Source of the DNA: Phycisphaerales bacterium
GTDB lineage: Bacteria > Planctomycetota > Phycisphaerae > Sedimentisphaerales > UBA12454
NCBI GenBank assembly: GCA_003142595.1
Contig: PLMU01000006.1
Span: 282,325 to 346,324 of the forward strand
Length of the DNA stretch: 64,000 nt
Direction of reading: 5' to 3'
In this document: one piece after another, positions 5,291-35,354 of the stretch
Numbering within the stretch: the stretch's first letter is position 1
How the letters are laid out: the number at the start of each line of letters is the position of its first letter
Notes under the pieces: model-generated
Databases searched by the model: none
What the model saw: the letters and a program-made list of their open reading frames with translations, nothing else
What the model was told of the DNA's origin: nothing
Made by a program: the position numbers and the translations under genes

Positions 5291-6538
5291 TTATACTCTG
5301 CCGACAACGAGGCATGCGTTATGGCCGCCAAAACCGAATGAATTGCTCGCAGCGTAGTTTATTTTTCTCTCTTTGGCTTTATTAGGCACAAAATCCAGTT
5401 TGGGGTCGCATTTGGGGTCAACGTTATCAAGATTTATCGTTGGATGAATTATTGACTTTTCTATCATTTTACAGGTTGCCACAAGTTCGATAGCGCCGCT
5501 TGCGCCCAGCGAATGGCCTATCATGCTTTTCGTCGAGCTGATTGACATTTTATAAGCATGCTCTCCGAAAACTTTCTTTATCGCCAATGACTCCGCGATA
5601 TCGTTAAGCTCTGTGCTTGTGCCATGGGCATTAATATAATCGAATTTTTCCTTCGCGATGCCTGACTGCTTTACTGCAATTTCTATGGCTCTTGCAGCGC
5701 CTTCGCCATCAGGTGGTGGTGCGGTAATATGGTGAGCGTCAGCTGTCGCGCCGTAGCCGAGCATCTCGGCATAGATTTTCGCGCCGCGTTTTTTCGCGTG
5801 CTCATATTCTTCAAGAACAATAGCCGCCGCGCCTTCGGCCATTACAAAGCCGTCACGGTCGATGTCGAAAGGCCTTGAAGCCTTTTGCGGAGCATCGTTT
5901 CGGGTACTGAGAGACCTTAAGGCGCAAAATGAACTCAAGCCTACCGGCGAAACTGCCGCTTCCGAACCGCCGGTAATCATAATATCGCTGCGGTCGTTGA
6001 GGATATTAAAGAACGCTTCTCCAATCGAATTAGAAGCAGAAGCGCAAGCGGTTACAACACAAAAATTCGGGCCTTTAAGACCATACATCATTGAAATCGT
6101 TCCGCAGGCGGCGTTGCCCATAAGTTTGGGAACTGTAAAAGGTGAAACTGCGCGAGGGCCTTTGTTCAGAAGCCGGATGTGCTGCTGTTCGATTTCCTGG
6201 ATACCGCCGATGCCGCTTCCATAAATAGAGCCGCAACGTTCAAGGTTTTCCTTTGGAAAATCTATTCCGCAGTCTTTGACTGCCTGCACCGCAGAAGCCA
6301 CCGCAAGCTGGCAGAAACGGTCCATTCGTTTGCCTTCGCGATGGTCAACAAATTTGTCAATGTCGAAGTTTTTTACTTCTCCGGCAAACCTGACCGGGTA
6401 TTGCGAAACATCGAAACTTGTTATGTTTGCAACTCCGCTCTGTCCCTTGCAGATTGCATCAAAGAAGACATCGACTGAGTCTCCCAGGGGTGTAGCACAG
6501 CCCAGGCCTGTTATGACTACTCGCCGTTTGTTCATCAT
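5291..6538 (-). CDS. fabF: 3-oxoacyl-ACP synthase II
   Basis: 415 aa. KAS II hallmarks: active-site Cys context VVTACASASNSIGEA, HGTSTELND, and GHSLGASGAIE...NSFGFGGHNACLV at the C-terminus. It sits downstream of acpP. Confidence 0.95.
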   Translation of the reverse strand: MMNKRRVVITGLGCATPLGDSVDVFFDAICKGQSGVANITSFDVSQYPVRFAGEVKNFDIDKFVDHREGKRMDRFCQLAVASAVQAVKDCGIDFPKENLERCGSIYGSGIGGIQEIEQQHIRLLNKGPRAVSPFTVPKLMGNAACGTISMMYGLKGPNFCVVTACASASNSIGEAFFNILNDRSDIMITGGSEAAVSPVGLSSFCALRSLSTRNDAPQKASRPFDIDRDGFVMAEGAAAIVLEEYEHAKKRGAKIYAEMLGYGATADAHHITAPPPDGEGAARAIEIAVKQSGIAKEKFDYINAHGTSTELNDIAESLAIKKVFGEHAYKMSISSTKSMIGHSLGASGAIELVATCKMIEKSIIHPTINLDNVDPKCDPKLDFVPNKAKERKINYAASNSFGFGGHNACLVVGRV

Positions 6539-6550
6539 AACAACCTGTTA

Positions 6551-6814
6551 TCAGCCCTGCTCTTTTTGCTTCAGTACAGTTACGATGTAGTCGATAGCCG
6601 CGCCGACGGTCTGAATCTTTTCAGCCTCTTCGTCGGGAATGCTCGTATCGAACTCATCTTCAAATTCCATAACCAGTTCAACGGTGTCCAGCGAATCTGC
6701 GTTGAGGTCGTTAATAAACGATGTTTCACGTTTTATTTCAGACTCTTCTGTACCCATTTGCTCTGCTACAATCTTAATTACCTTCTTTTCAATACTTTGG
6801 ACGTCAATACTCAC
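6551..6814 (-). CDS. acpP: Acyl carrier protein
   Basis: 87 aa. Phosphopantetheine-attachment motif [20 protein letters not shown]. It lies between fabG and fabF. Confidence 0.95.
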
Positions 6815-6925
6815 TTTTCGTCTCCTTGAAAAAAATAAATCCTAAATTACATTTCATCGCTGCCTGTTGGCTATTAGGGCGGTAATATACCTGCCAAAGG
6901 CGATACTTGCAATCATTTTTTTAAA

Positions 6926-7666
6926 TTACATCGCCATTCCGCCGTCAACCTGTAGCACCTGACCGTTAATATAGCCTGCATCATCACTTGCAAGAAACGC
7001 TACCGCTTTTGCCACATCCTGGGGAGTTCCCAGTTTTTTTGCCGGTATTATGGCAAGGGCCGCTTCTTTAACCTGTTCCGGCAGCGTATTTGTCATATCC
7101 GTAACAATAAATCCCGGCGCCACGCAGTTGGCCGTTATGCCTTTTTTTGCGACTTCCCTGACTATCGACTTTGTCATACCGATAAGTCCTGCCTTGCTCG
7201 CTGCGTAATTTGCACTTCCAGCCTGGCCCATAATTCCCGCGATTGAGCTGATACTAATAATCCTGCCGAATTTATTTCGAATCATCGGACGAAGAACCGC
7301 CCTTGTCGCCATAAAAGCCGCCCGCAGATTCACCGACATCAGGATATCGTATTCATCATCGCTCATCTGCATCATCAGTCTGTCGCGCGTAATTCCCGCG
7401 TTATTTACAAGGATGCCGATTCCATCGTATTGCTTCGACAATTCTTCCATTACTTCGTTGAGCTTGTCGGTCTTGGTGATGTCAACGCATTTTGTAATAA
7501 CGCTGTAGCCCGCTTCAGCGACAACTTTTTCAAGCTCTTTAAGCTGTTCAGCGTTCAAATCGAGTCCCGCGACAATCCTGCCCTGCTTGAGCAGTTCCAA
7601 AACTATCGCTCTGCCGATTCCTCTTGCCGCACCCGTTACAACCGCAAGTCTTTTTTCGTCAGCCAT
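6926..7666 (-). CDS. fabG: 3-oxoacyl-ACP reductase (SDR family)
   Basis: 246 aa. TGAARGIGRA cofactor motif and YAASKAG catalytic motif. The position in the fab cluster fits. Confidence 0.9.
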   Translation of the reverse strand: MADEKRLAVVTGAARGIGRAIVLELLKQGRIVAGLDLNAEQLKELEKVVAEAGYSVITKCVDITKTDKLNEVMEELSKQYDGIGILVNNAGITRDRLMMQMSDDEYDILMSVNLRAAFMATRAVLRPMIRNKFGRIISISSIAGIMGQAGSANYAASKAGLIGMTKSIVREVAKKGITANCVAPGFIVTDMTNTLPEQVKEAALAIIPAKKLGTPQDVAKAVAFLASDDAGYINGQVLQVDGGMAM

Positions 7667-11759: not shown

Positions 11760-13292
11760 GTGTATTCATTGTTTGCAAAATTTCCTGATATTAAAAAGGA
11801 AGTTCGCAGATTTAATTGCGGACTTCCTTTTTTATTAATTTGTTTTCTATTGTCGCTGATGTTCTCTCGTGGCTTTGGGATTCAGTTTATTTTCAAAGTC
11901 GTTGTATTATTACTCTTTGGATTTTTACTCTGGCATCGCTGGACTATAGGGAATATTAGTTCTCTAATCAAAGTTGCATTTTGTTTTGTTGCTGCGTGCC
12001 TATTCTGGCCAATTGTATTTCTTTATGGATTTTGGTCTTTCGTTATTGGAGAATCCTCTGATGACCATAAGTTACACTGGCAGGCAGGAACCAGTGCAAT
12101 TTTGTTTTTCTGGCTACTTCAGAACACAACTATCGGGTCATGGACATATTTCCCATTTATTGGTATGCCTATTTTTCTGATTACCTGTTTCATTCTTTTC
12201 TTTTTGCCGCGACAAGTCCAGACCGGACTAATAATTGCTTGTATGATTTTCAGTATTTTCCAATTATACAATATCCGTTCCGATGCCCAAATAGGATACA
12301 ATCAACTATATGCTCCCGGGTATAGACAAGGAGCCGTCTTATCAAAAATTCTCAATGGCACTTTGGTTGACATAAATAATGTAGGGGGTAAGGTAGGAAT
12401 TACAAGTTTGATTCAGAAATCAAAAGTAAATAACTCACAGTATCCGATTATACTGGTTGAACACGATCAAAAGCCTAGCAAGGATTATCCCATTATTATC
12501 GAAAGTAGTGTAACTATGCCATATCCTTGGTATGCTAATCAGCTTTTTGGAGATCAATATTTACTTGCTGCGATAGCAGAAGACGGACAATGGATTTCAA
12601 ACATTGGTGGAAAATTATCGCCAAAAGGTCATTTTGTGCTCATAACTAAAACTAGACAAGGCTATCAGCCATTAATAATTAAGTATGGCAAAAAGGTATA
12701 TATTAACGATTCTGATCCATTCGTGGACAGGCTTGCAAATTATCAGCAATCGGCTATCCGGGAAATAGCCTATGGGTTACCGTTTTATAGATCTCTTAAT
12801 ATCCTATCTCTAGTTGGTTTACTTTTGTCACGATGGAAAAAAACGAATATAATCATATCTTGCATTATTTTGGTCATTATTCTTGTGTATGTCAATCGTC
12901 CGATACAGGGAAACGTCAGAATGGTAGGTGATGTTAGTTTTCCGCATGAACCATCGAAAATATCTGGCCTGATGCGCAGCATAGTTGATGCCGGGTTTGC
13001 TTACACAACAGGAACGGAGAATTGCACATTGTTAGTTGTAGGCGAAAGTAAAAAAGCTGCGATTAAATCAACTGAACTTATGGTGGTAGGGAGTGCCGGA
13101 GCTACAATAACTTTGGGAGAAAATGTAATCAAGATTGATGAACTTCCTCTTGGTGATGAGGATGGAGTAATAGATGCTCGAAATGTAATAATAAATGGCG
13201 TCCTAAATAAACCTAGTGTGAAATTTCAAAATATAACAATTTTAGGTACAGGTAGTCCTGCAAAACAAAACTGGTCTATATGGCTTCGTTAA
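11760..13292 (+). CDS. Polytopic membrane protein of unknown function (about 6 N-terminal TM segments, soluble domain, TM pair, C-terminal soluble domain)
   Basis: 510-aa ORF, Phe/Ile/Leu-rich hydrophobic segments, low-GC codon usage. The start is uncertain. The track uses GTG 11760. TTG 11769 has GAGG 8 nt upstream. The gene overlaps the next one by 13 nt. Confidence 0.6.
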   Translation: MYSLFAKFPDIKKEVRRFNCGLPFLLICFLLSLMFSRGFGIQFIFKVVVLLLFGFLLWHRWTIGNISSLIKVAFCFVAACLFWPIVFLYGFWSFVIGESSDDHKLHWQAGTSAILFFWLLQNTTIGSWTYFPFIGMPIFLITCFILFFLPRQVQTGLIIACMIFSIFQLYNIRSDAQIGYNQLYAPGYRQGAVLSKILNGTLVDINNVGGKVGITSLIQKSKVNNSQYPIILVEHDQKPSKDYPIIIESSVTMPYPWYANQLFGDQYLLAAIAEDGQWISNIGGKLSPKGHFVLITKTRQGYQPLIIKYGKKVYINDSDPFVDRLANYQQSAIREIAYGLPFYRSLNILSLVGLLLSRWKKTNIIISCIILVIILVYVNRPIQGNVRMVGDVSFPHEPSKISGLMRSIVDAGFAYTTGTENCTLLVVGESKKAAIKSTELMVVGSAGATITLGENVIKIDELPLGDEDGVIDARNVIINGVLNKPSVKFQNITILGTGSPAKQNWSIWLR

Positions 13293-15286
13293 CTGGAACT
13301 GCAATAGCTCTGATATTTTGTTTAATATTCGGTCAGTTTTCAATGGCATTGCTGATCGCGGGTTTTTTGAGCCTATTAGGAATTATTTTTAACTCCCTCC
13401 AGAAAACTGCCTGCTTTATTTTCATAACAACTGTTACTTGTGCTTTTGTTATTTCTAGTAAATCAGAGTTGGCTTTTTTTATACCAGCCATAACTCTTTG
13501 GTTAACGAAAGAAGTTTTAGATAAAAGTTTATTCCCCAAAAATATTTGGATTATCTTTGCGCCTTTGGCAATTTATTGTATAACTTTTCAGGACCGCGAT
13601 ATTAAAATTTTGATTTTTGTGATTTTCGTTTTAGCCTTACCAAATTTTATTTTCTCATCTATACCCAAATACATAAATAGTCGGAAATGGAATATTATTA
13701 TGGTAGTAGCCATAATTGGTGTTGCCATAGTTAACCTTCTACTGTCAATGCCCATATATGACGGAAAGACGGCCATAATTGAATCAGGTGTCTGGGCTAA
13801 AACTGAAGTAAAAATGAATGATGTACGAAATTTGAACATTGAGTCCATTTATTCATACTCCGAATTTAAAGACCTTTTGGAAGCGCACGTTATTAAACCT
13901 TCAGATATTAATGATACCTATGCTGAAGCTTGGCTTATAACCCCTACTCAACCTTTGGATAATGATACAAAACGTAAATTATGTGATTGGATAAAACACG
14001 GTGGTCGGCTAATTATTGTGTCGGATCACACAGATCTTTTTGGTCATGGGAGGGTTATCAACTCATTTATCTCTGATCTTGGGCTTGAAACATCGTATAC
14101 GGCATTTTTCCCTATAACACCTAATTTGAAAGCTATGACTAACTGGGGCGAAAATGCCTGGTTGAAAACAACAAATGTCCAAAGCGGTTTATTCTTGTGG
14201 CCAGAGGTAACAGCAAGATGGGTGAACGAGAGCGCAGACTATTCCAGTAGAAATTTTTTTGGCCCGCTTTTGTTAAGTGCCGATGATACATTAGGACGTC
14301 GTGTAATAGCAGGCACAAAAAGTTGGGGAAAAGGACGTCTTGTGATTTTTGGGGATAGCACAAGTCTATCTAACTTTGCCCTTTATCAACCCCACAACAT
14401 CAATCTAATAGAAAAAATTCGAACTGGAAGTCGTTTCGCGTGTCTCTTGCCTTTTATTTCAGGTATACTCGTTGTGTCACTTTTAATTTCATTATTTTTT
14501 AAGAAATTAGATATTTTGCTAGTGATACCTGTGATAGGACTTTTTGCAATTTTAGATTGTCAAACCATACCTGTTAACTGGAAGCCTTTTGCATATTGGT
14601 CAGGTAACGAGAAAGCAGTAATGGAATTTGGACATATTCAAGAGCGTTTGTCAACAGCATATGCGGTTTCTTTTCTTTCTGGGCTTAAGCCTCGATGGGT
14701 TTCAAACATAAATCATAATATGACTGGTTTTTGGGTAGGATCAATGCCTCCACCCAACAGCAGATGGAGATGGATCGATACTAGCGATGCAAATGGATGT
14801 TTAGAAAACTATGATAAACGATTGGACACACTGTTATATAAAATTTCAGCAGGATCCCCTTATTTATGGAATGGAAAATTAGACCCTAATCATGCTAAGA
14901 TAGGTGGCATATGGACAGACAATGCTATGGGGGATTGGTGGTTTGATCGAGGTATTAGTAAATCTAAGCAACAAAGAATACAAGCATGGCTTGCTTGGTT
15001 ATCTAGTCAACCTTTACCAGAACCAATACACCCTATTGTTTTACATGATGCTTTCTTAAAGGATTACAAATTAAGAATTGATACGCAAGACTGGCAAACT
15101 GTTACCATCCCAGAATTACCTTTTAAGAACGATGAAATATATATAGGCCGTGGAATTTCTGCTACTATTGTCAATGCACAAGGTAAAACGATGTTCCTTG
15201 GAACAAAATCGTTTACTGAATCTTGGAACAGCGCAAACGCATGGGTGTTAATACCATTTATACCGGATAGTAATGTCAATGAATAA
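13280..15286 (+). CDS. Polytopic membrane protein with a central GldG/DUF4350-like soluble domain (tentative)
   Basis: 668 aa with about 5 N-terminal TM segments. The soluble part contains KHGGRLIIVSDHTDLFGHG and GKGRLVIFGDSTSLSNF. These resemble the 'GG-x-L-hhh-D' and 'hhhhGD..hh.N' strand motifs of GldG / ABC-transport-auxiliary / DUF4350 folds. Two more TM segments follow, then a Trp-rich C-terminal domain. Confidence 0.6.
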   Translation: MASLTGTAIALIFCLIFGQFSMALLIAGFLSLLGIIFNSLQKTACFIFITTVTCAFVISSKSELAFFIPAITLWLTKEVLDKSLFPKNIWIIFAPLAIYCITFQDRDIKILIFVIFVLALPNFIFSSIPKYINSRKWNIIMVVAIIGVAIVNLLLSMPIYDGKTAIIESGVWAKTEVKMNDVRNLNIESIYSYSEFKDLLEAHVIKPSDINDTYAEAWLITPTQPLDNDTKRKLCDWIKHGGRLIIVSDHTDLFGHGRVINSFISDLGLETSYTAFFPITPNLKAMTNWGENAWLKTTNVQSGLFLWPEVTARWVNESADYSSRNFFGPLLLSADDTLGRRVIAGTKSWGKGRLVIFGDSTSLSNFALYQPHNINLIEKIRTGSRFACLLPFISGILVVSLLISLFFKKLDILLVIPVIGLFAILDCQTIPVNWKPFAYWSGNEKAVMEFGHIQERLSTAYAVSFLSGLKPRWVSNINHNMTGFWVGSMPPPNSRWRWIDTSDANGCLENYDKRLDTLLYKISAGSPYLWNGKLDPNHAKIGGIWTDNAMGDWWFDRGISKSKQQRIQAWLAWLSSQPLPEPIHPIVLHDAFLKDYKLRIDTQDWQTVTIPELPFKNDEIYIGRGISATIVNAQGKTMFLGTKSFTESWNSANAWVLIPFIPDSNVNE

Positions 15287-15555
15287 TTAAGGCCGCCCGT
15301 CTCGACCCTATAGAGGCACTCAGACACGAATAACTGATTTTGCATATCTATTTATATATCAAACAGTTATGTTCATATTTTGCAAGTTAAACTCTCTCTA
15401 AACAAAATATTTGCCATAAGTCCTTATTTTTCATGCTCAATTTTTTATTCTTCTGTGGATGGAGTTTTCATTCTTTATATTTTTTCTTATTGAAAGATGC
15501 CTATAAATCGGTTATTCTCCTAATCTCTATGATTTTAACAGGAAAGTTGCGAAAT

Positions 15556-16329
15556 ATGGCAAGAAATCCCAGACATGCAGCGCTTTATGAGCTTATTAAT
15601 AAGGCGCGGTTCAAAAACGCTCAACAAAAGGCATTGGCCAGAATTGGCGTCAAAACCGATTCGGTCAAGCCGTTGGAAGAACGGCCGGTTGTTGTTTCTC
15701 AGGAAGAGCCAGCCGCCCCTGTGCAGGTAGAAACTGCCAGGCCGGAGCCGGTTAAAACAATTGCTGCATGGTCTGCCAAGCCAAAGCCGTTCAGGGTTTA
15801 TCCTGACCGGATTGAATTGTGTATTTCGTGGCAGGCAGCGGTAATTACAACGCTTGCTTTCGTAGCGGTATTGCTGGTCTGTTTCAGATTAGGCCAGGCA
15901 TATTCGATTAAAAAGGCTCAGGAGCCAAAGGTTGCAAAAGCTGTTGTTCCCGTACAGGCTGTTATACCTGAACCTGTAAAACCGGCTGCCGAGAAAAAAC
16001 CAGCGGCGCAAAATCCGCCCAAAATGGTCGAGCCGATGGGCGATAATATTATTGTTATTACAAGTTACGATGTAAGCTCGCATCTGGAACCGGTAAAGCA
16101 ATACTTTGCCACATACGGAATAGCGACTGAGATAATAAAAAGAGGTTCCCGTTACCTGCTGGTAACGCAGAACCGTTTTAATACTATCGATAAGCCCGGC
16201 ACTGATGGCTATGAAATGAAAAAGAAAATAATATCCGTCGGGGCGAATTATAAACCGCCGGCCGGCTCAGGTTTTGAATCCTTCGGAACAAAGCCGTTCC
16301 AGGATGTCTATGCAATGAAGGCTAATTAG
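15556..16329 (+). CDS. Membrane-anchored Pro/Ala-rich protein with a possible SPOR-like C-terminal domain
   Basis: The track ORF starts at 15433. I prefer ATG 15556 (MARNPRHAALYEL...), which has a purine-rich stretch upstream. There is one TM segment (AAVITTLAFVAVLLVCF) and a PEPVKPAAEKKPAA linker. The C-terminal ~80 aa (IIVITSYDVSSHLEPVKQYFATYGIATEII..) is loosely SPOR-like. Confidence 0.5.
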   Translation: MARNPRHAALYELINKARFKNAQQKALARIGVKTDSVKPLEERPVVVSQEEPAAPVQVETARPEPVKTIAAWSAKPKPFRVYPDRIELCISWQAAVITTLAFVAVLLVCFRLGQAYSIKKAQEPKVAKAVVPVQAVIPEPVKPAAEKKPAAQNPPKMVEPMGDNIIVITSYDVSSHLEPVKQYFATYGIATEIIKRGSRYLLVTQNRFNTIDKPGTDGYEMKKKIISVGANYKPPAGSGFESFGTKPFQDVYAMKAN

Positions 16330-26676: not shown

Positions 26677-27294
26677 TTGAAGAATAAAAATATAAAATAT
26701 GCACAAAGCCGATTGCGGAAGAAAATCCTGCTGCTGTCGGCTTTTTTATTGCTCTCGGCCGTTGTATTTCTCGACAGGACTTTTCACCCATATCTTAAAA
26801 CTCCCCTCTCAACTTCAATAACGCTCAGCAGCGATTGGGACAAATATAATGAAAAAACTTTTACCGTCGTAAAGGTCGTTGACGGCGACACAATCGATAT
26901 TGATGTGCCGGACGGAAAATTTCCAGATACAAGAATCCGTCTGCTCGCCGTTGATACTCCTGAAACCGATAAAAGCCCTTCCGGTGCGATGTATTTTGGA
27001 AAAGAGGCCAGCGATTTTGTCCGCAAAATAGCGATGGAACAAAAAGTTACCGTCCTTCTGGATAAATTATCGAAAACTCGCGATAAATACGGCCGCCTGC
27101 TTGCATTTGTAAGATTTGCTGACGGAAAAATTTTGAATGAAGAACTTGTTTCTCAGGGTTTTGCTTATGCGGATACTCGTTTCCCGCACAGTGACTATGA
27201 AAAATTTATGCAGCTTGAAAAAACAGCACAGGAACAGAAAAAAGGACTGTGGGAAAAAGTTACACCTGACCAAATGCCAAATTGGCGCAAATAA
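26677..27294 (+). CDS. Membrane-anchored staphylococcal-nuclease (SNase/thermonuclease) homologue
   Basis: 205 aa with an N-terminal hydrophobic anchor LLLSAFLLLSAVVFL. SNase-like core: VVKVVDGDTIDI..IRLLAVDTPET..YFGKEASDFVRK..DKYGRLLAFV..LNEELVSQGFA. The start codon is non-ATG and uncertain (TTG 26677 or a TTG near 26713). Confidence 0.8.
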   Translation: MKNKNIKYAQSRLRKKILLLSAFLLLSAVVFLDRTFHPYLKTPLSTSITLSSDWDKYNEKTFTVVKVVDGDTIDIDVPDGKFPDTRIRLLAVDTPETDKSPSGAMYFGKEASDFVRKIAMEQKVTVLLDKLSKTRDKYGRLLAFVRFADGKILNEELVSQGFAYADTRFPHSDYEKFMQLEKTAQEQKKGLWEKVTPDQMPNWRK

Positions 27295-27340
27295 TGAACA
27301 CAAATTTTCACGAATTATTTAATCGCTGATGACAGGGATT

Positions 27341-29590
27341 TTATTGATGTTCTTCGAGTATTAATCTCGTAGTTTTTAAAGCCTCATTTATATCAATATA
27401 CTTAGCTGAATATGCTTTTGCTTTCAATTCTGATGATAAATAGCCCCCATACTTTCCTACTGGAGGGATTTTTTCTGGAAATACTGAGCAACAAAGGTCT
27501 TCTGGTTTCATAGGATTGTTCATGAAATCACTAAGAATTATTTTGGCATCTTTAACCGAAAAATTAAATTTTTGGAAAGTAAGAGCAATTCCTTGGTTTA
27601 TGACTTCATTAGTAGATAAACCTGCTAATCTAAAGACCAAATACAATGTATGATTAGCACGGCTACTTGTCCAAGTGAATATATGGAGAAGATTTCCTTC
27701 TTTTACAATATAATTATCAGTTAAATCATTTCGTTGGAATTCCTGAATCGCCCAGCCCAACACTGTTTTTGTATTTGTTTCAAGCCAATTGGGTAATATT
27801 TTCTTCTGAAGAATCTGATACATTATTTCTCTAATTCTCTCATGAATAAGCCCTCCTCCTCCATGCCATTGAACTAACTTCTTGCCTTTAGCCTGTTCAA
27901 CAACAATTTTCATCTGCCGCTCATCTACATCTACAATCTTCCAGCGTTTTCCTCCTAAGAGAATGTAACTACCCGGCTGATAAAATCCTTCTCTTCCTTC
28001 AATTTCCCCGATAGCCCCTGTGGATGAAACAACCTGATAATTCCTGGGAGTTTCAAAAGCAGCATAAAATTCATAATGAGATACTATTTTTTCTCCTTCC
28101 AAGCCTAAAATTAGATCTCCTCCTTCAACTTGTTCAACCAATTCATTTTCACCTAAGCTTTTCAAAACAAGAGAAAATTCTTCAGATGTGATATTACCAA
28201 ATATGTACTCTAACGATAGCATTTTGAATAAACTACTTGCTTGTATGCCTCCTCTTTCAACTATAATGCTGAGTATTTGTTGTATAAGCGTACTATAATC
28301 TCTTTCGAGAGATAAAGGGGGTTCTATCCATGGAGTTATTCCTTCTTGGCCAAGCATAAGTAGAACAAGAGATAATGCCTGAAGTAAATCAGGATAAAGT
28401 CTTTCGGGTAAGATAGATTTTTCATTACATTTTTCTACAGGAACATACAAGTATAATTTTGATGGTTTTCCTTCTCTGCGACCACTTCTACCCATCCTTT
28501 GCTTCAAAGAACTAACACTATGAGGTGGTCCTATTTGTCCCACTGCATCTACTTCTCCGATGTCGATACCCAATTCGAGCGTACTGCTACAAATTGCTGT
28601 ACAAGGTCGGTTGGATTTTAATTCATCTTCTACAGACTCTCTGAATTGCTTACTCAAAGAACCGTGATGTACTAAAAACTGATTAGATAATTTTCTTTTT
28701 TTAGATACCTGTGCTAAATAATCAGCTAATTCTTCTATTTGAGCTTTTCTATTGCAGAATATTAAATTTGTTTTTCCATTAAAATGTGCCAATAGATGAT
28801 TTGCAATAGACAAAAGATTATCATCTAAGTCAAAATCCTTGGTTTTATCAGGCATATTGTTTTGCATCTGCTCAACTGGAACATCCTCAATAAATGTTTT
28901 AATTAATATTTCTACATCATTAATTTGAGAGGATTTAATAAGAATTGGGGAGTTTTTGGAATCCCCGGCAAGCCATTTTTGTGCAATGTCTACATCTCCA
29001 ATTGTAGCAGATAATCCTATTTTTCTTGTCCTAATCAAGTCTTTCCGATAGACCTCTATTCTGTTAAGCAAAGATGCCAGCTGTCTGCCACGTTCAGAAT
29101 CTAAAAATACATGTAATTCATCAATAACGATTGCTTGTAAATTTAAAAATATCCTTCTCGAATCCTGACCTATTTTCATTAATAATGATTCTAATGATTC
29201 GGGGGTAATTAATAATATGCCTGAAGGATTTTTTATCAAATTTTGTTTTTTTGAACTATCGACATCTCCATGCCATCTGTGAACAGGAATTTCCGTTCTG
29301 TTGCATAATTCTTCCAACCTTCGAAACTGATCATTTATGAGAGCCTTAAGAGGACCTACATAAAGAACTCTAATTGACCCAGAACCATGGTCGGAGGTTA
29401 AGGATGATATTATTGGCAAAAAAGCAGCTTCTGTTTTGCCTGCAGCGGTATTTGCCATTAGCAGAAGATCACTGTCGGTATCAAACCATGCATTAATAGA
29501 CTCAACTTGAAATTGATAAAGTTGAGTCCATTTCATGTCCCATAAGACATTCTGTATATTTCTATGAAGTCTATTAAAAGCCGAGGTCAT
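27341..29590 (-). CDS. Superfamily-2 DExH-box helicase (Lhr-like), third gene of the TerB/ATPase/helicase operon
   Basis: 749 aa. Motif I NTAAGKTEAAFLP, motif II VIDELH, motif III LSATIG. Helicase-C elements are HHGSLS, TLELGIDIG and QRMGRSGRR. About 300 aa of unassigned C-terminal domain follows. Confidence 0.85.
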   Translation of the reverse strand: MTSAFNRLHRNIQNVLWDMKWTQLYQFQVESINAWFDTDSDLLLMANTAAGKTEAAFLPIISSLTSDHGSGSIRVLYVGPLKALINDQFRRLEELCNRTEIPVHRWHGDVDSSKKQNLIKNPSGILLITPESLESLLMKIGQDSRRIFLNLQAIVIDELHVFLDSERGRQLASLLNRIEVYRKDLIRTRKIGLSATIGDVDIAQKWLAGDSKNSPILIKSSQINDVEILIKTFIEDVPVEQMQNNMPDKTKDFDLDDNLLSIANHLLAHFNGKTNLIFCNRKAQIEELADYLAQVSKKRKLSNQFLVHHGSLSKQFRESVEDELKSNRPCTAICSSTLELGIDIGEVDAVGQIGPPHSVSSLKQRMGRSGRREGKPSKLYLYVPVEKCNEKSILPERLYPDLLQALSLVLLMLGQEGITPWIEPPLSLERDYSTLIQQILSIIVERGGIQASSLFKMLSLEYIFGNITSEEFSLVLKSLGENELVEQVEGGDLILGLEGEKIVSHYEFYAAFETPRNYQVVSSTGAIGEIEGREGFYQPGSYILLGGKRWKIVDVDERQMKIVVEQAKGKKLVQWHGGGGLIHERIREIMYQILQKKILPNWLETNTKTVLGWAIQEFQRNDLTDNYIVKEGNLLHIFTWTSSRANHTLYLVFRLAGLSTNEVINQGIALTFQKFNFSVKDAKIILSDFMNNPMKPEDLCCSVFPEKIPPVGKYGGYLSSELKAKAYSAKYIDINEALKTTRLILEEHQ

Positions 29591-29593
29591 TTG

Positions 29594-30907
29594 TTATAAC
29601 TTAAAATTTACAAGGTCATCATGGTCTGTTTTGCCGCCATCAGGTTTGACGTTATCCACTTTATTAAATATGATGTTTTTAGTGTCATCTTTAATAAAAT
29701 AAGTTAAATCTTTATCTGGATTCTGCTCCATCACATTTAATAATCCTACAAATTGCTGAACGGCATCTCTTGGGGTCAAAAAATACTCAGAACCCAATCT
29801 TTTCTCACAAAAATTCATAAACTTCAATATCCCATCTTGATTAATTATCGCTTTTTCAAGATTTCCATCTGCATGAACATTTATAATTCTTTCAAACAAA
29901 ACAACTAAATCTTCCCTGCTGAGCGGTTCAAGTCTTATTACAGGTCCTTTGGTGTCGACCATATCTTGAATTGAAAAGGGATTATCAGCTAAACGAGTTG
30001 CCAGTGCCTCATAGCTAAACAACCCCCGTTTTCTGTCAGATAAAAAGTCTTCAGTTCCAGCAAAACAAAAACCTAATCCTTCAACATGCCCTTGAAGGCA
30101 ATCATTCAAAATATGTAAAATAACCTCATAATTTTTAGTTCGTGCTGCACTATTATTCAATCTCTCTGAAAGGACTACAAGTTCATCTAAATTTACAAAC
30201 AAACCGCTATATCCTATAAGTTTTACAAATTTTGCCCATAACTTTAACATATCATAAAAATGCTCGTCTTCAATAATATCTCGAACGCCGAGATCCTGTC
30301 TCGCTTCTGTTTTTGTTCCATATTCACCTCGTAGCCAACGAGTTGCAGCGTTCATCAAATCATCATTATTGGTCGAAAAACCTTCTACATATTTTGCTAA
30401 CACTCGAATTAAATTCACACCATGAGTTAAGTCTAACATAGGTTGCAATTTCTTTTTTATTGTATTTTCCAAAATATCAAAATCAATTGTTCCTTTAAGT
30501 TCATTATGTACGTCAAGAACAAACTTTTCGATAAGCCCTGACAAAGCTCCACCTTCAGGCTTAGCACGTGTTGACATATTTTTAATCAACTCTGTGTATA
30601 AAGCTCTGGAGCATCCTCCTGAACCATATAACCTACGATCAACTGTAATGTCTGCTTGCAAAATTACAAATTTACGTTCTATGGCCACAGTTCTTACCAA
30701 ATTTAGGAAAAAACTTTTGCCACTTCCAAATCTTCCTATCACAAAACGAATAGAAGAGCCGCCATCTTCAATGTTCATCAAATCAGTGATTAAAGCTTGT
30801 AATTCATTTTTTCGCCCAACCTGAATATGCTCTAGACCGATTTTGGGGACGACCCCAGCAGCTAAACTCTGAAGAATTGCTGTTCTTTCTCTAGGTTTTA
30901 TATTCAT
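29594..30907 (-). CDS. P-loop NTPase (DUF2791 / BrxC-BrxD-like ATPase, tentative), second gene of the operon
   Basis: 437 aa. Walker A GRFGSGKSFFL and Walker B-like GLFVNLDELV. The start codon overlaps the upstream stop (TAATG at 30905-30909). Its stop lies 3 nt before the helicase start. Confidence 0.75.
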   Translation of the reverse strand: MNIKPRERTAILQSLAAGVVPKIGLEHIQVGRKNELQALITDLMNIEDGGSSIRFVIGRFGSGKSFFLNLVRTVAIERKFVILQADITVDRRLYGSGGCSRALYTELIKNMSTRAKPEGGALSGLIEKFVLDVHNELKGTIDFDILENTIKKKLQPMLDLTHGVNLIRVLAKYVEGFSTNNDDLMNAATRWLRGEYGTKTEARQDLGVRDIIEDEHFYDMLKLWAKFVKLIGYSGLFVNLDELVVLSERLNNSAARTKNYEVILHILNDCLQGHVEGLGFCFAGTEDFLSDRKRGLFSYEALATRLADNPFSIQDMVDTKGPVIRLEPLSREDLVVLFERIINVHADGNLEKAIINQDGILKFMNFCEKRLGSEYFLTPRDAVQQFVGLLNVMEQNPDKDLTYFIKDDTKNIIFNKVDNVKPDGGKTDHDDLVNFKL

Positions 30908-33336
30908 TAGTTGTCTCCAAATTTATTGAGTAACTCTTTATTTACAATTATGTTATCACCTTCTTCAATCAAAAAGTCTCCTAAGTTTTCATCTGCCCAA
31001 GTATTTATCTCTTCGAGAGCAGCTGAAACCGTAACATTGTATTTTCGAGCGAGAGCATTTACTTCATCTATAAGCCATTCTTTCTTTGTAATAATTTCCT
31101 CAAAAAATGGTTTGATATGGTTAGATATTACTATGTTAGAAAGATTACAGATATTTTCATTTTGCATTTCTTTAGGTATTGCAAATTTATTTGACCTTTC
31201 AGATGCAGATTGTTCCATAGCCCTAATCAAAATCTTTGAGGCTTCAATGCTATCTTCACGAATTTTCCGGATTTTATCTACGTCTAATATTGTAACTTTT
31301 GATGGGATAGCCTCACCCTGAGTTTCCTTTATTCCTTTTACTGACAATCGTGACGGTTCTGATGTCTTATACCCAAATTCATCAATATATTCTTTTGTAA
31401 GTTCTTTCGGCAGCCCTAAAGACTTAAATGTCTTTTCTAATGCTTCTACTTCTTCTAAACACACTCCGTCAACGGAACCTGCAATCATGACAAGAAATTT
31501 CCCTATAGATTTACGTTGCTTTTCCTCAAAAATATTTTGAATTTTATCCTTTATTCCAAATAAAGAGATCCCATTCTTTAAACTCACACCAATTAATGCA
31601 TCTAATCGTAGACGATCATTACGAGTCAACATGAATCGTTCTTGAAAAAATTCAATAATAACTTGCCGCTCTCCATCCTCTAAAGCCCCATTTGCCAAAG
31701 ACACTTCTATGGCTAAAGGCATAATTAAACTTACTAAGGAATAATTTTGCCCTTCTGGTAAATAAGGTTTATCAGGTAAACGTAATATAGCACAATGGTC
31801 ATTCCATTTGAAAGGTTTTTGAGTATAGCGTGGATCGGGCTCAATTGATGAACCTAAAGATTCAACAAATTGAGCTATCAGTCTGGATTGACCAAGTGAA
31901 AGCTTGGGTCTATAATCAATTTTATTTAATGTGGCAATCTTCTCTATGGGAATCAGCCAAATTTTTGAATCATTTGCATAACTCTCTAAAAGCGTATCCC
32001 ATTCCATCTGCTGGGGATGTTTCAATTCTTGTTGAAGATCAGATGGTAACGCTGCAAAAGCGATAGAATTGCCTTCTGGAGACGTTGCCGCTTTTCGGGA
32101 AAAAGCTTTTAATTCCTCTATGCATTCATTGAATAATTTAACAACAGGCCCAAACTGCGTTTTCCATCCTACAATTGTCGGCCAGTCCGCAGAAGGGATT
32201 GTGCTTTCAAAGCCTATCCCTCTAAGTAAGGTTGGAGAAGCGGCATGATAGTCAATTCTCAGGCTTTGCTCACTTTTTTGGGGAATTATTTGATTTGCAT
32301 ATTTTTCATTATATCGAAGCGTAAACAGTTTTACAAATTCATCGTATGCTCTACTAAGAACTATACTTCTAACAGTTCTTTCCTCCTGTTTAGCAAGATA
32401 AAATGCCCAATCAGCAGGTAGAGGCATATTGTTTTTCGCCAAATAACCTAATAGCATTGTTTGGAATGCCTCAGACAGATGCCCCTCTTGATAATTTATC
32501 AGAGCATTAATTAATTTCTTTTTGGGCATTAATATGCCCAAAAGAATTAAATGAAGTAATAATCCTGTAGCATATTGCCTAAATGAACCTGAATATCCAT
32601 AAATTTCTAATAACCTTATGACTTCATATCCTACATCTAATATATCTTTTCGGTCTAAAAGTGCTCTTCGTTCTAATCCATAAAAATAAATAAATACATA
32701 ACCCAACTCGATATCAGGGTCGTTCTTCCCTGTTGCAAGCCATTTGATATAATTAGCTACTTGGGCAGAATCGGTATTGCTTAAATATGGCCAGTAAGGT
32801 AAGGTTCGTTGATTCGTTTCGTGTGGAACGCCAATTGGTCGCCTTAAACATAAAAGACTGGCATCAAAATCTTCATATGTTTGACTATCCACCACATAAA
32901 TTAAAGGGTCTTCAAGAATATACCCCCCGATTTCTATTTTTGAGCCTTTGCCCGCAAAATACGGTTCAGGTTTTGTAACGAGTTTCTTTAATATTTCTTT
33001 TGGTTTTATTGTGTTAGGTTCTGAAAGTTTTCTATCGGGATCTTTAATAAATATCCAAATTAAACTTCCTACTGTGCCTAAAACAACAAAACTTTGAAAG
33101 AATATTTGAATCCCTTTGTAGTAGCCTAACACACAGCAGAATAAAAATAATGCTGTTATTAATAATCGTTTTGAAAAGGTTATTTGATATTTGTGGATTA
33201 AAAATAGTACGCTGGTAATTACCATGGGAAAAATGGTACAAAGTAAAGCTCCCCCGATGGGGAGTAGTATCGAAAGCAAGATAAACCAAGCCACAAAAAG
33301 AAACAGCAGTATCTGCTTAACAGTATTCTCCCTCAT
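30907..33336 (-). CDS. Membrane-anchored TerB-N/TerB-C-like protein, first gene of the operon
   Basis: 809 aa with about four hydrophobic helices in residues 9-97. Then comes a region with YWPYLSNTDSAQVANYIKWLATGKNDPDIELGYVFIYFYGLERR. This matches my memory of the TerB N-terminal domain signature (YWPsY..L...qRa.YL.WL..GR......gYvFLYfYGLERR). The C-terminal region is helical. Confidence 0.7.
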   Translation of the reverse strand: MRENTVKQILLFLFVAWFILLSILLPIGGALLCTIFPMVITSVLFLIHKYQITFSKRLLITALFLFCCVLGYYKGIQIFFQSFVVLGTVGSLIWIFIKDPDRKLSEPNTIKPKEILKKLVTKPEPYFAGKGSKIEIGGYILEDPLIYVVDSQTYEDFDASLLCLRRPIGVPHETNQRTLPYWPYLSNTDSAQVANYIKWLATGKNDPDIELGYVFIYFYGLERRALLDRKDILDVGYEVIRLLEIYGYSGSFRQYATGLLLHLILLGILMPKKKLINALINYQEGHLSEAFQTMLLGYLAKNNMPLPADWAFYLAKQEERTVRSIVLSRAYDEFVKLFTLRYNEKYANQIIPQKSEQSLRIDYHAASPTLLRGIGFESTIPSADWPTIVGWKTQFGPVVKLFNECIEELKAFSRKAATSPEGNSIAFAALPSDLQQELKHPQQMEWDTLLESYANDSKIWLIPIEKIATLNKIDYRPKLSLGQSRLIAQFVESLGSSIEPDPRYTQKPFKWNDHCAILRLPDKPYLPEGQNYSLVSLIMPLAIEVSLANGALEDGERQVIIEFFQERFMLTRNDRLRLDALIGVSLKNGISLFGIKDKIQNIFEEKQRKSIGKFLVMIAGSVDGVCLEEVEALEKTFKSLGLPKELTKEYIDEFGYKTSEPSRLSVKGIKETQGEAIPSKVTILDVDKIRKIREDSIEASKILIRAMEQSASERSNKFAIPKEMQNENICNLSNIVISNHIKPFFEEIITKKEWLIDEVNALARKYNVTVSAALEEINTWADENLGDFLIEEGDNIIVNKELLNKFGDN

Positions 33337-33498
33337 TTTCCATTTCCTTGCTCAAAAAAAGACCAATATGGAGTGACGAGAAACCTTTCAGAATTTTACC
33401 TGAATTATGTCAATTATTCAAGTGTTTTAAGACAGATGTTAGTCGTTAGCCGCAGGCATTTAGTCAAAATTTTGCCCGATAACATAAGAACGGGATTT

Positions 33499-33875
33499 TG
33501 ATACTGAAAAGGGCAATTTTCAACTTTACCGTCCGCATAATCGACTTCAAACGCCTCATATCAAGCTTGAAAAACCATTTTTCAAGCATGAAACGCCGAA
33601 AAGCAAGTGTGAAACACGAAGAAGTAAATATGAAACACGACATATCAAACTTGATTTGCCATAAAGTAAACTTGAAACATCGTAAAGTAAACTTACTTTA
33701 CGACAAAGTAAATGTGAAACACGAAGAAGCAAGCTTGAAACACGGAGTTTCATACTTGAAATGCTTCAAAGTAAGCTTGAAATGTCTTATTTCAAGCATG
33801 AAAAACCTCTCGTCAAACTTCCAAAACACTCGATAAAGCTTAAAAAACCTCTTGTCAACCCGCCCAAACACCCGA
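33499..33875. repeat. About 18 head-to-tail copies of a degenerate 21-bp repeat (core ..AARCTTGAAACAC..)
   Basis: Unit starts counted at 33499, 33520, 33541 (a 20-nt unit), 33561, 33582, 33603, 33624, 33645, 33666, 33687, 33708, 33729, 33750, 33771, 33792, 33813, 33834, 33855. Examples: gcaagtgtgaaacacgaagaa, gtaaatatgaaacacgacata, gtaaacttgaaacatcgtaaa, gcaagcttgaaacacggagtt. There are no spacers between units. Confidence 0.85.
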
Positions 33876-33925
33876 AAGGATAATAATATTTTTGTAGCGA
33901 GGGATTTGATTCAAGTACAAGGCTT

Positions 33926-33991
33926 GCAGTTTCGGCCCAAGCGGAGGCGTACTATTGTACGTCGAGCATTGGGCGAGACTGCGTAACGCAG
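33926..33991. other. Compound hairpin with an overlapping alternative hairpin, downstream of the NtrC-like gene
   Basis: gcagtttcg(g)cccaa (33926-33940) pairs with ttgggcgagactgc (33969-33982). An inner cgtac-tatt-gtacg stem lies within. ctgcg-taa-cgcag (33979-33991) overlaps the right arm. No U-run follows on either strand. Confidence 0.4.
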
Positions 33992-34010
33992 TAATTGGAG
34001 CAAAGAACCG

Positions 34011-35354
34011 CTACTGAATATTGTACTCCTTTATCTTCCTATAAAGGGTTCTTTCGCCAATACCCAGCAGCTTTGCGGCTTTTTCGCGGTTGTTCTGCAC
34101 TTTGGCAAGCGTATCGATAATCGCCTGTTTCTCAAGGTCGTTAAGCGAAACTTTGCCCGTTACCTGCCCTGCCAGTTGTCTTGTCCGGTTAATTTCAGCA
34201 GGTATATCCTTTACATCGAGAGTTTCCGAATCGCTCATAACCGCCATTGTCCTGATACAATTCCTCAGTTGCCTTATATTGCCCGGCCAATTGAAAGACT
34301 TGAGAATATTTAAAGCATTATCGGAAATGCCCTTTTTAGGTTTGCCTAATTCAACAGCAGCCTGCGCCAGAAAATAATCGACAAGCTGTTTTATATCTTC
34401 TGTCCTGTCTCTCAGCGTCGGAACGGTTACGCTGACGCCCTTGATTCTAAAATAAAGGTCCTGCCTGAATTTGCCCTGTTCGACTAAATTCGTCAGGTCG
34501 TGATTCGTTGCGCTGATAACGCGGACATCGACAACCGTGGATTTATTCGAGCCGACCGGCACAACGATACCGTCCTCGAGCACCCGCAGTAATTTGGCCT
34601 GCATCGTAAGCGGCATATCGCCTATTTCGTCAAGAAAGAGCGTCCCTTTATCGGCAACTTCAAACAATCCTTTTCGGGCTTCCGTCGCACCTGTAAAAGA
34701 GCCTTTTGCGTGGCCGAAGAGTTCGCTTTCGAGCAGCGATTCTGTAAGGCCGGCGCAATTTAGCGGTTTAAACGCATTATTTTTTCGCGGCGAATTATTA
34801 TGAATGGCTTGAGCCAGCAGTTCTTTTCCCGTGCCGGACTCGCCTTCAATCAGAACGGTTATATTTGTCGGCGCGACCCGTTTCAAAACAGCTATAATCG
34901 ACTGCATCGAAGGGCTTTCGCCGACTACTCCATCGAATTTAAAACCGTTTTTGCGGTTTGCAGAGGCCGAAGCGGCAAGAAATTTTTTCAGCGCTTTTTC
35001 GGTCATCGCGCGAAGCTGGTCAATATCTATTGGCTTGACCAGATAATCGAACGCTCCGCAGCGCATCGCCTCTTTGCAGGTATCTATCGAGGAATAGGCG
35101 GTAATAAGAACAACTTCGCTGTCGGGATTTTGTTCTTTGGCTGTTTTTAAAATATCAATTCCGTTTATTTTATCGTCGTGAAGGTTCAAGTCGGTTATGA
35201 CAACATCGATGCGCTTGCTGGAAAGCAGTTCGATTGCATTTTTGGCGTCATAGACTGCGATTGTTTCGCCGCCTGTCTGCGAAAGCGCCTCTGCCAGCAC
35301 ATCGGCATGGGCCTGCTCATCGTCAATTATCAGTATTGCCGGTTTTTCTGTCAT
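34011..35354 (-). CDS. Sigma-54-dependent response regulator (NtrC family: REC + AAA+ + Fis-type HTH)
   Basis: ATG 35354 (MTEKPAILIIDDEQ) is preferred over the track start at 35417. It lies 1 nt after the kinase stop. The AAA+ domain has GESGTGKE, ESELFGHAKGSFTGA (the GAFTGA-type loop) and DEIGDM. The C-terminal HTH is AAKLLGIGERTLYRKIK. Confidence 0.9.
   Translation of the reverse strand: MTEKPAILIIDDEQAHADVLAEALSQTGGETIAVYDAKNAIELLSSKRIDVVITDLNLHDDKINGIDILKTAKEQNPDSEVVLITAYSSIDTCKEAMRCGAFDYLVKPIDIDQLRAMTEKALKKFLAASASANRKNGFKFDGVVGESPSMQSIIAVLKRVAPTNITVLIEGESGTGKELLAQAIHNNSPRKNNAFKPLNCAGLTESLLESELFGHAKGSFTGATEARKGLFEVADKGTLFLDEIGDMPLTMQAKLLRVLEDGIVVPVGSNKSTVVDVRVISATNHDLTNLVEQGKFRQDLYFRIKGVSVTVPTLRDRTEDIKQLVDYFLAQAAVELGKPKKGISDNALNILKSFNWPGNIRQLRNCIRTMAVMSDSETLDVKDIPAEINRTRQLAGQVTGKVSLNDLEKQAIIDTLAKVQNNREKAAKLLGIGERTLYRKIKEYNIQ

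Follow-up and report, generated by a model that had tools for sequence, protein, structure and literature searches.

Is the compact three-gene operon on the minus strand of this 64-kb window (the whole stretch of DNA analyzed) a Shango (SngABC) anti-phage defense system, as a first-pass annotation had claimed, and is this copy a divergent one? The ORF listing of the window shows three co-directional minus-strand ORFs of 809, 437, and 749 aa, corresponding to sngA (30907..33336), sngB (29594..30907), and sngC (27341..29590), respectively. The sngA/sngB junction reads ACTAATGAAT, in which nt 30907 is common to the TAA stop and the ATG start (1-nt overlap, TAATG). The sngB/sngC junction reads TAA-CAA-ATG with a gap of 3 nt (29591-29593). 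The three genes are thus packed as first described and are tightly coupled in translation. The GC content is 0.34-0.37 across 27001-34000 (near 0.35) vs. 0.42-0.48 on either side (about 0.46), in agreement with the reported AT-richness. A second low-GC block at 11.7-16.3 kb was considered as a second defense island and discarded, as it gave 0 PADLOC matches.

PADLOC searches returned a Sng model as the top match for each of the three proteins. The SngA model was the sole match of the 809-aa protein (1.4e-51). The 437-aa protein matched SngB at 1.7e-154 (513 bits) vs. BrxD at 1.6e-38 (131 bits), and the 749-aa protein matched SngC at 1.2e-228 (759.5 bits) vs. BrxHI at 2.5e-119 (397.6 bits); the bit scores of the Sng models are 2-4 times those of the Brx models. 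The Pfam domains are also those that had been proposed from the letters of the sequence. SngA contains TerB_N (2e-25, 90.2 bits, cutoff 25) and TerB_C (1.5e-14, 54.9 bits, cutoff 26.3). SngB, which had been placed tentatively among DUF2791/BrxC-BrxD-type ATPases, matches PF10923 BrxC_BrxD at 1.9e-134 (449 bits). SngC, annotated as an SF2 helicase, matches DEAD (6.2e-31) and Helicase_C (2.1e-18). All motifs quoted for the three proteins were located in the translations.

In the BrxD-like P-loop ATPase SngB, a motif scan placed Walker A (GRFGSGKSF) at aa 58 (nt 30710-30736, minus strand) and Walker B (FVNLDELV) at aa 237 (nt 30176-30199, minus strand). Across 32 homologues, G58, G61, G63, K64, D241, and E242 never vary, and SngB is 44-47% identical to enterobacterial copies. 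In SngC, the same type of scan placed motif I (AAGKTEA) at aa 49 (nt 29426-29446), motif II (DELH) at aa 157 (nt 29111-29122), and motif VI (QRMGRSGRR) at aa 364 (nt 28475-28501), all on the minus strand, and motif III (SAT) lies at aa 194. Motifs I, II, III, and VI are invariant in 72 homologues. By their residues, the ATPase and helicase motifs of SngB and SngC are intact. In automatic gene calls, sngC begins 18 codons further downstream and encodes 731 aa. The 749-aa start is preferable because the match to the PADLOC SngC profile already begins at residue 2 (covering 2-716 of the 720 profile positions, almost the whole profile) and the family consensus AFxRLHxxIQ falls within the first 18 residues. 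The AF2 model of SngC (pLDDT 88.9, pTM 0.89) gave full-length Foldseek matches to Lhr (5V9X, E 6.9e-30, TMq 0.67) and to MrfA (6ZNP). As modeled, SngC carries a complete four-domain Lhr-type helicase (Lhr-core) fold, consisting of two RecA domains, a winged helix, and a fourth domain.

The order sngA-sngB-sngC was kept in 59/59 metagenomic SngA loci (the informative ones, with enough sequence around sngA), and co-occurrence of the three proteins is obligate. The trio was also found in relatives with SngA identity of 71-74% in other genomic contexts, and in Planctopirus limnophila. Conservation among the metagenomic loci decreases from SngB to SngC to SngA; fast evolution of SngA fits a role as the specificity-determining part. 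Shango homologues protect against phages in Pseudomonas aeruginosa (PA14) and Escherichia coli (Johnson et al., 2023, PMC10250203; Millman et al., 2022 preprint). The validated proteobacterial SngA is expected to share about 25-30% identity with the planctomycete copy.

Horizontal acquisition, also suggested at first, was examined by comparison with relatives. Aligned with the nearest species representative (L010), the DNA is homologous up to 27289 and again from 34012; between these points L010 has 558 bp instead. The homology break and the GC profile delimit an inserted, variable segment of 6.7 kb (27290..34011) between a core SNase gene and an NtrC-type response-regulator gene. The flanks are core housekeeping genes, and the segment holds no ORF of at least 200 aa besides sngA, sngB, and sngC. 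Among the 25 relatives in which both core genes were found, the SNase and NtrC-type genes lie at most 100 bp apart in eight. Other relatives carry different cargo at the junction, including IetAS (8.6e-137, 6.6e-249), an Mrr-like PDC-S02 gene (2.8e-140), and a SIR2-TPR gene. The empty site in the nearest relative together with the alternative cargo indicates that the segment arrived by horizontal transfer and occupies a variable hotspot. Part of the junction cargo in relatives is not recognizably defensive. No tRNA, tmRNA, or Rfam element was found at the segment borders and no integrase or transposase within the segment. The sole border-spanning repeat is a 19-nt pair of 84% identity, which probably arose by chance. 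This small core-gene junction exchanges defense cargo in Sedimentisphaerales and could be mined for new systems.

We conclude, with a probability of about 0.88, that the operon is an intact Shango (SngABC) anti-phage defense system in Sedimentisphaerales (Phycisphaerae, Planctomycetota), carried on a horizontally acquired 6.7-kb low-GC segment at a variable hotspot. The locus is an ordinary copy of an already catalogued three-gene system present in PADLOC and DefenseFinder, and nothing in it should surprise specialists. It does add a Shango copy with clear boundaries from Planctomycetota, where phages and defenses have hardly been studied.

The region upstream of sngA had been listed among the features that set this copy apart. 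About 16 degenerate 21-nt tandem units (33523..33866; consensus aCTTGAAAcACc....t.AA on the plus strand) lie there inside the inserted segment, and they form the sole cluster of the 21-nt core motif in the window. One possibility was that the repeat controls Shango and is conserved with it, but TRF, run on the 1.6 kb preceding each of 40 sngA loci, found the array at the window's own locus only. Because the array is absent upstream of the 39 other loci, the repeat is not a Shango feature, and it drops out as part of the divergence of this Shango copy. The sngA leader and probable promoter region are tentatively placed at 33337..33522 (minus strand) on account of weak sigma-70-like matches (33421-33393 and 33442-33413), which are not above chance for the region. 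The promoter scan as a whole was at chance level (28 found vs. 24.2 ± 5.5 expected). No terminator above chance was detected at the operon end, and the 46-bp convergent spacer from sngC to the SNase gene shows no obvious hairpin. Control by the neighboring NtrC-type sigma-54 activator was rejected: no sigma-54 (-24/-12) site occurs in 33337-34010, and the regulator/kinase pair is core and is found beside empty sites as well.

SngA is modeled (AF2, pLDDT 87.4) as a four-helix membrane protein with a large TerB_N-TerB-TerB_C part predicted to be cytoplasmic. A Kyte-Doolittle scan and the AF2 model agree on four TM helices at aa 2-24, 27-47, 52-74, and 76-96 (codons 2-96, 33049..33333, minus strand), modeled at pLDDT 86-97. 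A disordered basic linker (aa 103-119) follows. Two stretches rich in K/R, aa 47-57 and 98-130, suggest an N-in/C-in topology. TerB_N (PF13208) covers aa 131-320 (32377..32946, minus strand) and includes the annotated signature motifs YWPY (aa 181), YIKWLATGK (aa 196), and GYVFIYFYGLERR (aa 212). The SngA family alignment shows W199, F215, F218-Y219-G220, and E222 to be invariant in this domain, as are E556 and E629 in the central TerB four-helix bundle (aa 539-644; 31405..31722, minus strand). TerB_C (PF15615) covers aa 684-804 (30925..31287, minus strand). The Pfam TerB score of the central bundle (1.5e-4) is under the gathering score, as it is in this clade. The domain is nevertheless real, since fold comparison confirms it: Foldseek matched 2H5N (prob 1.00, target TM 0.67-0.70) and 2OU3, and profile searches matched 2H5N (2.6e-5) and Klebsiella TerB (2JXU, 0.013). 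With full-length SngA, Foldseek matched the TerB domain alone and found nothing for TerB_N, the middle alpha/beta region, or TerB_C. Searches of PDB sequences with SngA and SngB, whether by single sequence or by profile, gave nothing other than the TerB fold.

Members of the SngA family have anywhere from 0 to 4 hydrophobic helices at the N-terminus. About 80% of the family has an N-terminal anchor, and 18-24%, Planctopirus among them, lacks one. Membrane attachment may therefore not be essential. The four-helix form is in the minority (2/125 family representatives). This copy is not notably divergent, contrary to its first description: only the helix count is uncommon, while the anchor itself and a length of ~770-810 aa are usual for SngA, including that of a Klebsiella plasmid.

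We found no mechanistic paper on Shango, and reviews and other sources of 2025-2026 still list its mechanism as unknown, as had been stated at the outset. The scheme we favor runs from SngA as membrane sensor or scaffold through the SngB ATPase to the SngC helicase; its details are put forward tentatively, at less than even odds. SngA would hold the system at the cytoplasmic membrane, on its inner face, and act as sensor or scaffold where phage DNA enters, and its TerB domain may read a perturbation of the membrane or of divalent cations. That TerB proteins monitor the membrane is an idea already put forward (Millman et al., 2022 preprint). The BrxD-like SngB would then use the SngA signal to load or activate SngC, which would move 3'-to-5' along phage single-stranded DNA or RNA:DNA hybrids and disrupt early replication or transcription. 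Neither a nuclease nor any other toxic effector domain is encoded in the operon, so that interference would come from helicase action or from recruited host nucleases.

The lack of any other effector domain can also be taken to mean that the roles are reversed, with SngC and SngB as sensors of phage nucleic acid and SngA as the effector, whose TM bundle permeabilizes the membrane and aborts infection. The four confidently modeled TM helices fit this possibility, other TerB systems (Bunzi, Dionysus) pair with membrane or pore proteins, and a helicase is established as the sensor in Hachiman (HamB). A pore-former would be expected to be conserved, however, and of all structured parts of SngA the TM region shows the lowest conservation (37% identity vs. 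57-67% in the cytoplasmic domains, among close relatives). The periplasmic loops are merely 3-4 residues long. Anchoring is frequent in the family but involves 0-4 helices, with some members having none, which argues for tethering and against a pore-forming effector. We consider an effector role of SngA unlikely.

The distribution of Shango raises the question of whether the main target is other mobile DNA, such as plasmids and conjugative elements entering through the membrane. The trio was found on 696 plasmid records, 542 of them predicted to be conjugative, and in 0 records of the GenBank phage set; a membrane-anchored DNA translocase would be well placed to meet incoming conjugative ssDNA. 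On the other hand, it is phage that the homologues were measured against (PMC10250203), and in one IMG/VR contig the trio adjoins phage head and tail-sheath genes. A primarily anti-plasmid role is rated as quite improbable.

The solved structures nearest to SngC are those of the repair helicases Lhr and MrfA, and this would suit a housekeeping, membrane-associated DNA-repair or stress module, with an Lhr/MrfA-type helicase and a TerB metal/stress sensor, outside immunity. TerB was first described in tellurite/stress resistance, and Ter-associated repair/stress systems were proposed before the defense screens (Anantharaman, Iyer and Aravind, 2012), both as cited in Millman et al. A housekeeping function is very hard to reconcile with the absence of the operon from the nearest relative, with a hotspot that swaps IetAS, Mrr-like, and SIR2 cargo, with the frequency of Shango on conjugative plasmids, and with the experimental phage protection given by homologous trios (PMC10250203). 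SngC also scores far under the NCBIfam cutoffs for the ligase-associated DEXH helicase (TIGR04121, 236 bits vs. 850) and Lhr (PRK09751, 114 vs. 1496), and no ligase or exonuclease partner gene for it was found at the locus. That SngB-SngC is a remnant or satellite of BREX (BrxD + BrxHI) and not self-contained, as the PF10923 and BrxHI matches might hint, is scarcely credible given a three-gene segment between core housekeeping flanks with no PglX, PglZ, BrxC, or BrxL, a score of 131 bits vs. a cutoff of 350 for the NCBIfam BREX_BrxD model (NF033438), the two- to fourfold lead of the Sng models in bits, and the TerB partner in every one of the 59 loci.

Returning to the Shango reading with SngA as membrane sensor or scaffold, the four-helix SngA of the Sedimentisphaerales clade could be more than an anchor, an integral-membrane sensor that directly detects phage genome injection or membrane perturbation, and, separately, the 21-nt array could be a dedicated regulatory element that arrived with the island; we regard this combined proposal as doubtful speculation. 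If true, the four-helix subtype would be a clean model for the way in which TerB-family proteins relay events at the membrane to an ATPase-helicase in the cytoplasm. More generally, models of Shango are constrained by the obligate trio, by SngA as the fastest and SngB as the slowest evolving component, by variable anchoring, by the Lhr-core character of SngC, and by the lack of a nuclease.

Several known systems share parts of this architecture. The Ter tellurite operon (TerZABCDE) has a stand-alone TerB of ~150 aa together with TerC/TerD, whereas here TerB is internal to an 809-aa protein with no adjacent TerC/TerD. Bunzi (BnzA) and Dionysus (DinB) resemble Shango in combining a TerB-family domain with membrane association, and membrane surveillance has been proposed for both. 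They pair TerB with membrane or pore-forming proteins, while Shango pairs it with an ATPase-helicase, and TerB_N and TerB_C are specific to the Shango-type protein. The repair helicases Lhr-core and MrfA (DUF1998; 5V9X, 6ZNP) match all four domains of SngC over the full length (TM 0.57-0.67), but SngC is 15-19% identical to them in sequence and sits in a mobile defense operon. The accessory pair BrxD + BrxHI of BREX type 2 consists of a homologous PF10923 ATPase and an Lhr-like helicase, so that SngB-SngC and BrxD-BrxHI are probably a shared two-protein module; the Sng locus differs from BREX in having no methyltransferase, PglZ, or BrxC and in its TerB_N/TerB_C membrane protein partner. Like the cDHS1/2 hotspots of P. 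aeruginosa (PMC10250203), the SNase/NtrC junction is a fixed core-gene junction with different defense systems in different genomes. It is much smaller (0-7 kb, one system at a time) and is bordered by no tRNA, tmRNA, or integrase.

The closest counterparts are the Shango systems of P. aeruginosa PA14, E. coli, and enterobacterial plasmids, which have the same three proteins in the same order: an SngA in which a hydrophobic anchor at the N-terminus precedes TerB_N, TerB, and TerB_C, a BrxD-like SngB of about 437 aa, and a DExH SngC of about 730-750 aa. The Klebsiella plasmid system (769, 438, and 731 aa) shows the same arrangement of domains, and its SngA has one N-terminal TM helix. The planctomycete copy departs from canonical Shango in that its SngA carries four TM helices rather than one and a TerB domain that is more diverged and sub-threshold in Pfam, and in that its host is an anaerobic sediment planctomycete and not a proteobacterium.

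The three minus-strand ORFs, sngA (33336..30907, 809 aa), sngB (30907..29594, 437 aa) and sngC (29590..27341, 749 aa), have the stop/start overlap and the 3-nt gap reported in the first-pass annotation, and each peptide motif quoted there was found where expected in the three proteins. The sngA/sngB junction is ACTAATGAAT, in which one base is common to the TAA stop and the ATG start, and the sngB/sngC junction reads TAA-CAA-ATG. Public gene calls start sngC 18 codons downstream, giving 731 aa. The 749-aa start is preferred because the PADLOC SngC profile alignment begins at residue 2 of this form and the first 18 residues contain the family-conserved motif AFxRLHxxIQ; this start tightly couples sngC to sngB.

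The earlier proposal of a TerB-like protein, tentatively a BrxC-BrxD-type ATPase, and a helicase agrees with Pfam for all three proteins. SngA matches TerB_N (aa 131-320, 2e-25), TerB_C (aa 684-804, 1.5e-14) and, below threshold, TerB (aa 539-644, 1.5e-4); SngB matches BrxC_BrxD (PF10923, 1.9e-134); and SngC matches DEAD (6.2e-31) and Helicase_C (2.1e-18), with a faint Lhr winged helix. The top PADLOC models were SngA for the 809-aa protein (1.4e-51, its sole match), SngB for the 437-aa protein (1.7e-154; next BrxD, 1.6e-38) and SngC for the 749-aa protein (1.2e-228; next BrxHI, 2.5e-119). The NCBIfam search returned no equivalog for any of them, and scores for BREX_BrxD, ligase-associated DEXH helicase and Lhr-type identities fell far under the cutoffs. 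Shango is formally defined as three neighbouring, co-directional Sng genes, which is the arrangement of the window trio. We assign the trio to a Shango defence operon with a probability of about 0.9.

The SngA search gave 103 homologues, the nearest of which carry the names Sedimentisphaerales or Planctomycetes. The same trio was found in other genomic contexts in relatives with SngA 74% and 71% identical, and in Planctopirus limnophila (identity 29, 53 and 41% for SngA, SngB and SngC). A pattern scan based on the SngA alignment yielded 80 loci from metagenome contigs and 3 from viral contigs. SngB and then SngC followed on the same strand in 59 of 59 informative loci (those in which the contig continues for ≥3.6 kb downstream of sngA), at 42-72% (SngB), 33-59% (SngC) and 24-51% (SngA) identity to the window proteins, which bears out co-occurrence of the trio across genomes. 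The SngA family is large, with 2,992 clusters (50% identity) at E ≤1e-30 in an exhaustive profile search. SngB homologues were present on 696 PLSDB plasmids (449 from Klebsiella, 144 from Salmonella; 542 predicted conjugative) and none was found in the GenBank phage set. At L174:2377-13589, a viral contig (IMG/VR UViG_2846560694_000001), the trio adjoins phage genes for major head, virion structural and tail sheath proteins; both sngA and the sheath gene appear as two ORFs apiece, through either frameshifts or assembly errors. Shango may thus also be carried on, or beside, myovirus-like prophages. Two independent Shango loci, L005:15460-17999 and L090:9085-11615 (SngA 71% and 74% identical to that of the window), each adjoin a pair encoding a ∼695-aa GNAT acetyltransferase, which in L005 also contains PIN_3, and a 148-aa protein. 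The pair is absent from the window; it may travel with Shango as a defence or toxin-antitoxin module.

The AT-rich character noted previously was confirmed, with GC of 0.34-0.37 across 27-34 kb vs. 0.42-0.48 on both sides. Probing with the flanking aspartate kinase retrieved 80 related genomes, all of them Sedimentisphaerales, Phycisphaerae or other Planctomycetota MAGs. The nearest species representative, L010, whose aspartate kinase and PNPase are 98% and 97% identical to those of the window, shares the window's gene order: homoserine dehydrogenase, phosphoglycerate-mutase-like, aspartate kinase, SNase, NtrC-type regulator, histidine kinase and PNPase. Its SNase-regulator interval is just 558 bp. 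DNA homology between the two ends at 27289 and restarts at 34012; the acquired segment is therefore 27290-34011, and the suspected horizontal acquisition is upheld by this empty-site comparison. The otherwise empty site carries one small ORF of ∼156-163 aa (L010:12009-12500, minus strand) without a Pfam match.

Among 25 relatives with both core genes, the SNase-regulator gap fell into three classes: ≤100 bp (8 relatives, in which the site is empty), 450-1319 bp (9 relatives) and 2.3-7.0 kb (8 relatives). Junctions were compared in relatives including L010, L013, L019, L023, L025, L038, L057 and L065. The cargo comprised IetA (8.6e-137) and IetS (6.6e-249) with an IS200-like gene in L038, an Mrr-type PDC-S02 protein (2.8e-140) in L019, a SIR2_2-TPR protein in L057, a TPR protein and an Nmad2 protein in L065, and elsewhere secreted or TPR proteins with no obvious defence role. 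The segment borders lack tRNA genes, Rfam elements and integrases, and no flanking repeat there is convincing. Given the varied cargo and gap sizes and these borders, the junction behaves as a small variable hotspot between core genes, often with defence genes. The GWF2_41_51 MAG lineage carries a 71%-identical Shango elsewhere and none at this junction, which underlines the mobility of the system.

The SNase gene (26677-27294, plus strand) is 81% identical to its L010 counterpart (L010:11291-11965) at the protein level vs. 93-98% for its neighbours, and its 3' part shows 85.6% DNA identity with a ∼55-bp indel, which fits recombination at the hotspot border. On two of the metagenome contigs with the identical Shango locus (L002 and L004), the NtrC-type regulator was called as two ORFs of 139-141 and 298 aa (locus coordinates ∼5980-7326), pointing to a frameshift or strain-level disruption beside the island. 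A second low-GC block at 11760-16329 (plus strand, GC 0.34-0.39) encodes ORFs of 510, 668 and 298 aa; PADLOC gave no match to the three, and the sole Pfam match was a weak DUF4350 in the 668-aa protein. This block may be another acquired segment.

The 675 bp from the regulator stop to the sngA start lie wholly within the insert. They contain a tandem array (33523-33866) of ∼16 degenerate 21-nt units with the consensus aCTTGAAAcACc....t.AA and the core AAGCTTGAAA, a motif that clusters nowhere else in the window. A 112-aa ORF crossing the array (33498-33836, plus strand) matched nothing in Pfam and is probably a spurious product of the repeat periodicity. The region upstream of sngA shows no sigma-54 promoter. 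No comparable array was found upstream of 39 other sngA genes, so the array cannot be claimed as a Shango component.

The AF2 model of SngA (pLDDT 87.4) begins with helices at aa 2-24, 27-47, 52-74 and 76-96, followed by a disordered basic linker (aa 103-119), a small beta unit (aa 126-149), the TerB_N helical body (aa 190-346), an alpha/beta middle region (aa 354-520), a helical bundle (aa 530-654) and a winged-helix-like C-terminal unit (aa 742-806). Lys/Arg residues are concentrated in the 47-57 loop and past helix 4, the remaining loops having 3-4 residues; by the positive-inside rule, this distribution suggests an N-in/C-in topology, in which every globular domain would be cytoplasmic. 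Of the structured regions, the transmembrane bundle shows the lowest conservation (37% identity with close relatives vs. 57-67% for the cytoplasmic domains). Foldseek against the PDB returned nothing but TerB-fold proteins, 2H5N (probability 1.0, target TM 0.67-0.70) and 2OU3, for the 530-654 bundle alone, and the SngA family profile matched 2H5N (2.6e-5) and Klebsiella TerB 2JXU (0.013), which confirms the weak Pfam TerB match. E556 and E629 of this domain are invariant in 72 homologues. Superposition on the Lhr core (5V9X; TMq 0.67, E 6.9e-30) covers the full length of the SngC model (pLDDT 88.9, pTM 0.89), as does that on MrfA (6ZNP), and the model has no additional nuclease domain. Sequence and profile searches found no relative of SngB among solved structures.

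Phage protection by Shango is documented in P. aeruginosa and E. coli (PMC10250203; Millman et al. 2022 preprint). The system of P. aeruginosa PA14 cuts plating 10-100-fold and protects liquid cultures (PMC10250203). Its mechanism is still treated as unknown in a 2025 preprint and in 2025-2026 reviews. The most economical model drawn from the anatomy found here has three steps. SngA would be a membrane-tethered sensor or scaffold; SngB, a BrxD-like ATPase, would load or switch the helicase SngC; and SngC would be a translocase of the Lhr type, moving 3'-5' along phage nucleic acid as it enters or replicates. Lhr has 3'-5' directionality and prefers RNA:DNA hybrids, and by analogy SngC may share both properties. 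We put this chain forward tentatively, as a somewhat doubtful one. A rival explanation, that SngA is a pore-forming suicide effector, is made less likely by two direct observations: the trio contains no pore, nuclease, protease or NADase domain, and the membrane anchor is variably present across the family.

The trio on a Klebsiella IncF plasmid encodes proteins of 769, 438 and 731 aa (PADLOC SngA 1e-104, SngB 3.4e-186, SngC 4.6e-282), and its SngA has TerB_N, TerB and TerB_C as in the window. In the Klebsiella protein these domains follow a single N-terminal hydrophobic helix and a stop-transfer stretch, KKKRK; Planctopirus SngA lacks the hydrophobic helix. Hydrophobic segments were counted upstream of the GLERR motif: 0, 1, 2, 3 and 4 segments occurred in 17, 44, 22, 2 and 8 of 93 close SngA hits, and in 30, 40, 51, 2 and 2 of 125 family representatives. 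A membrane anchor is thus the rule (∼76-82% of members), and the four-helix SngA is a minority form common to the window copy and its 50-74% identical relatives. The first-pass annotation was right both in what it observed and in how it interpreted it. Calling this copy divergent, as it did, was an overstatement, since the architecture is standard and the four transmembrane helices are a minor variant. The operon is an intact, standard example of a defence system already catalogued, here from a phylum that is under-sampled.
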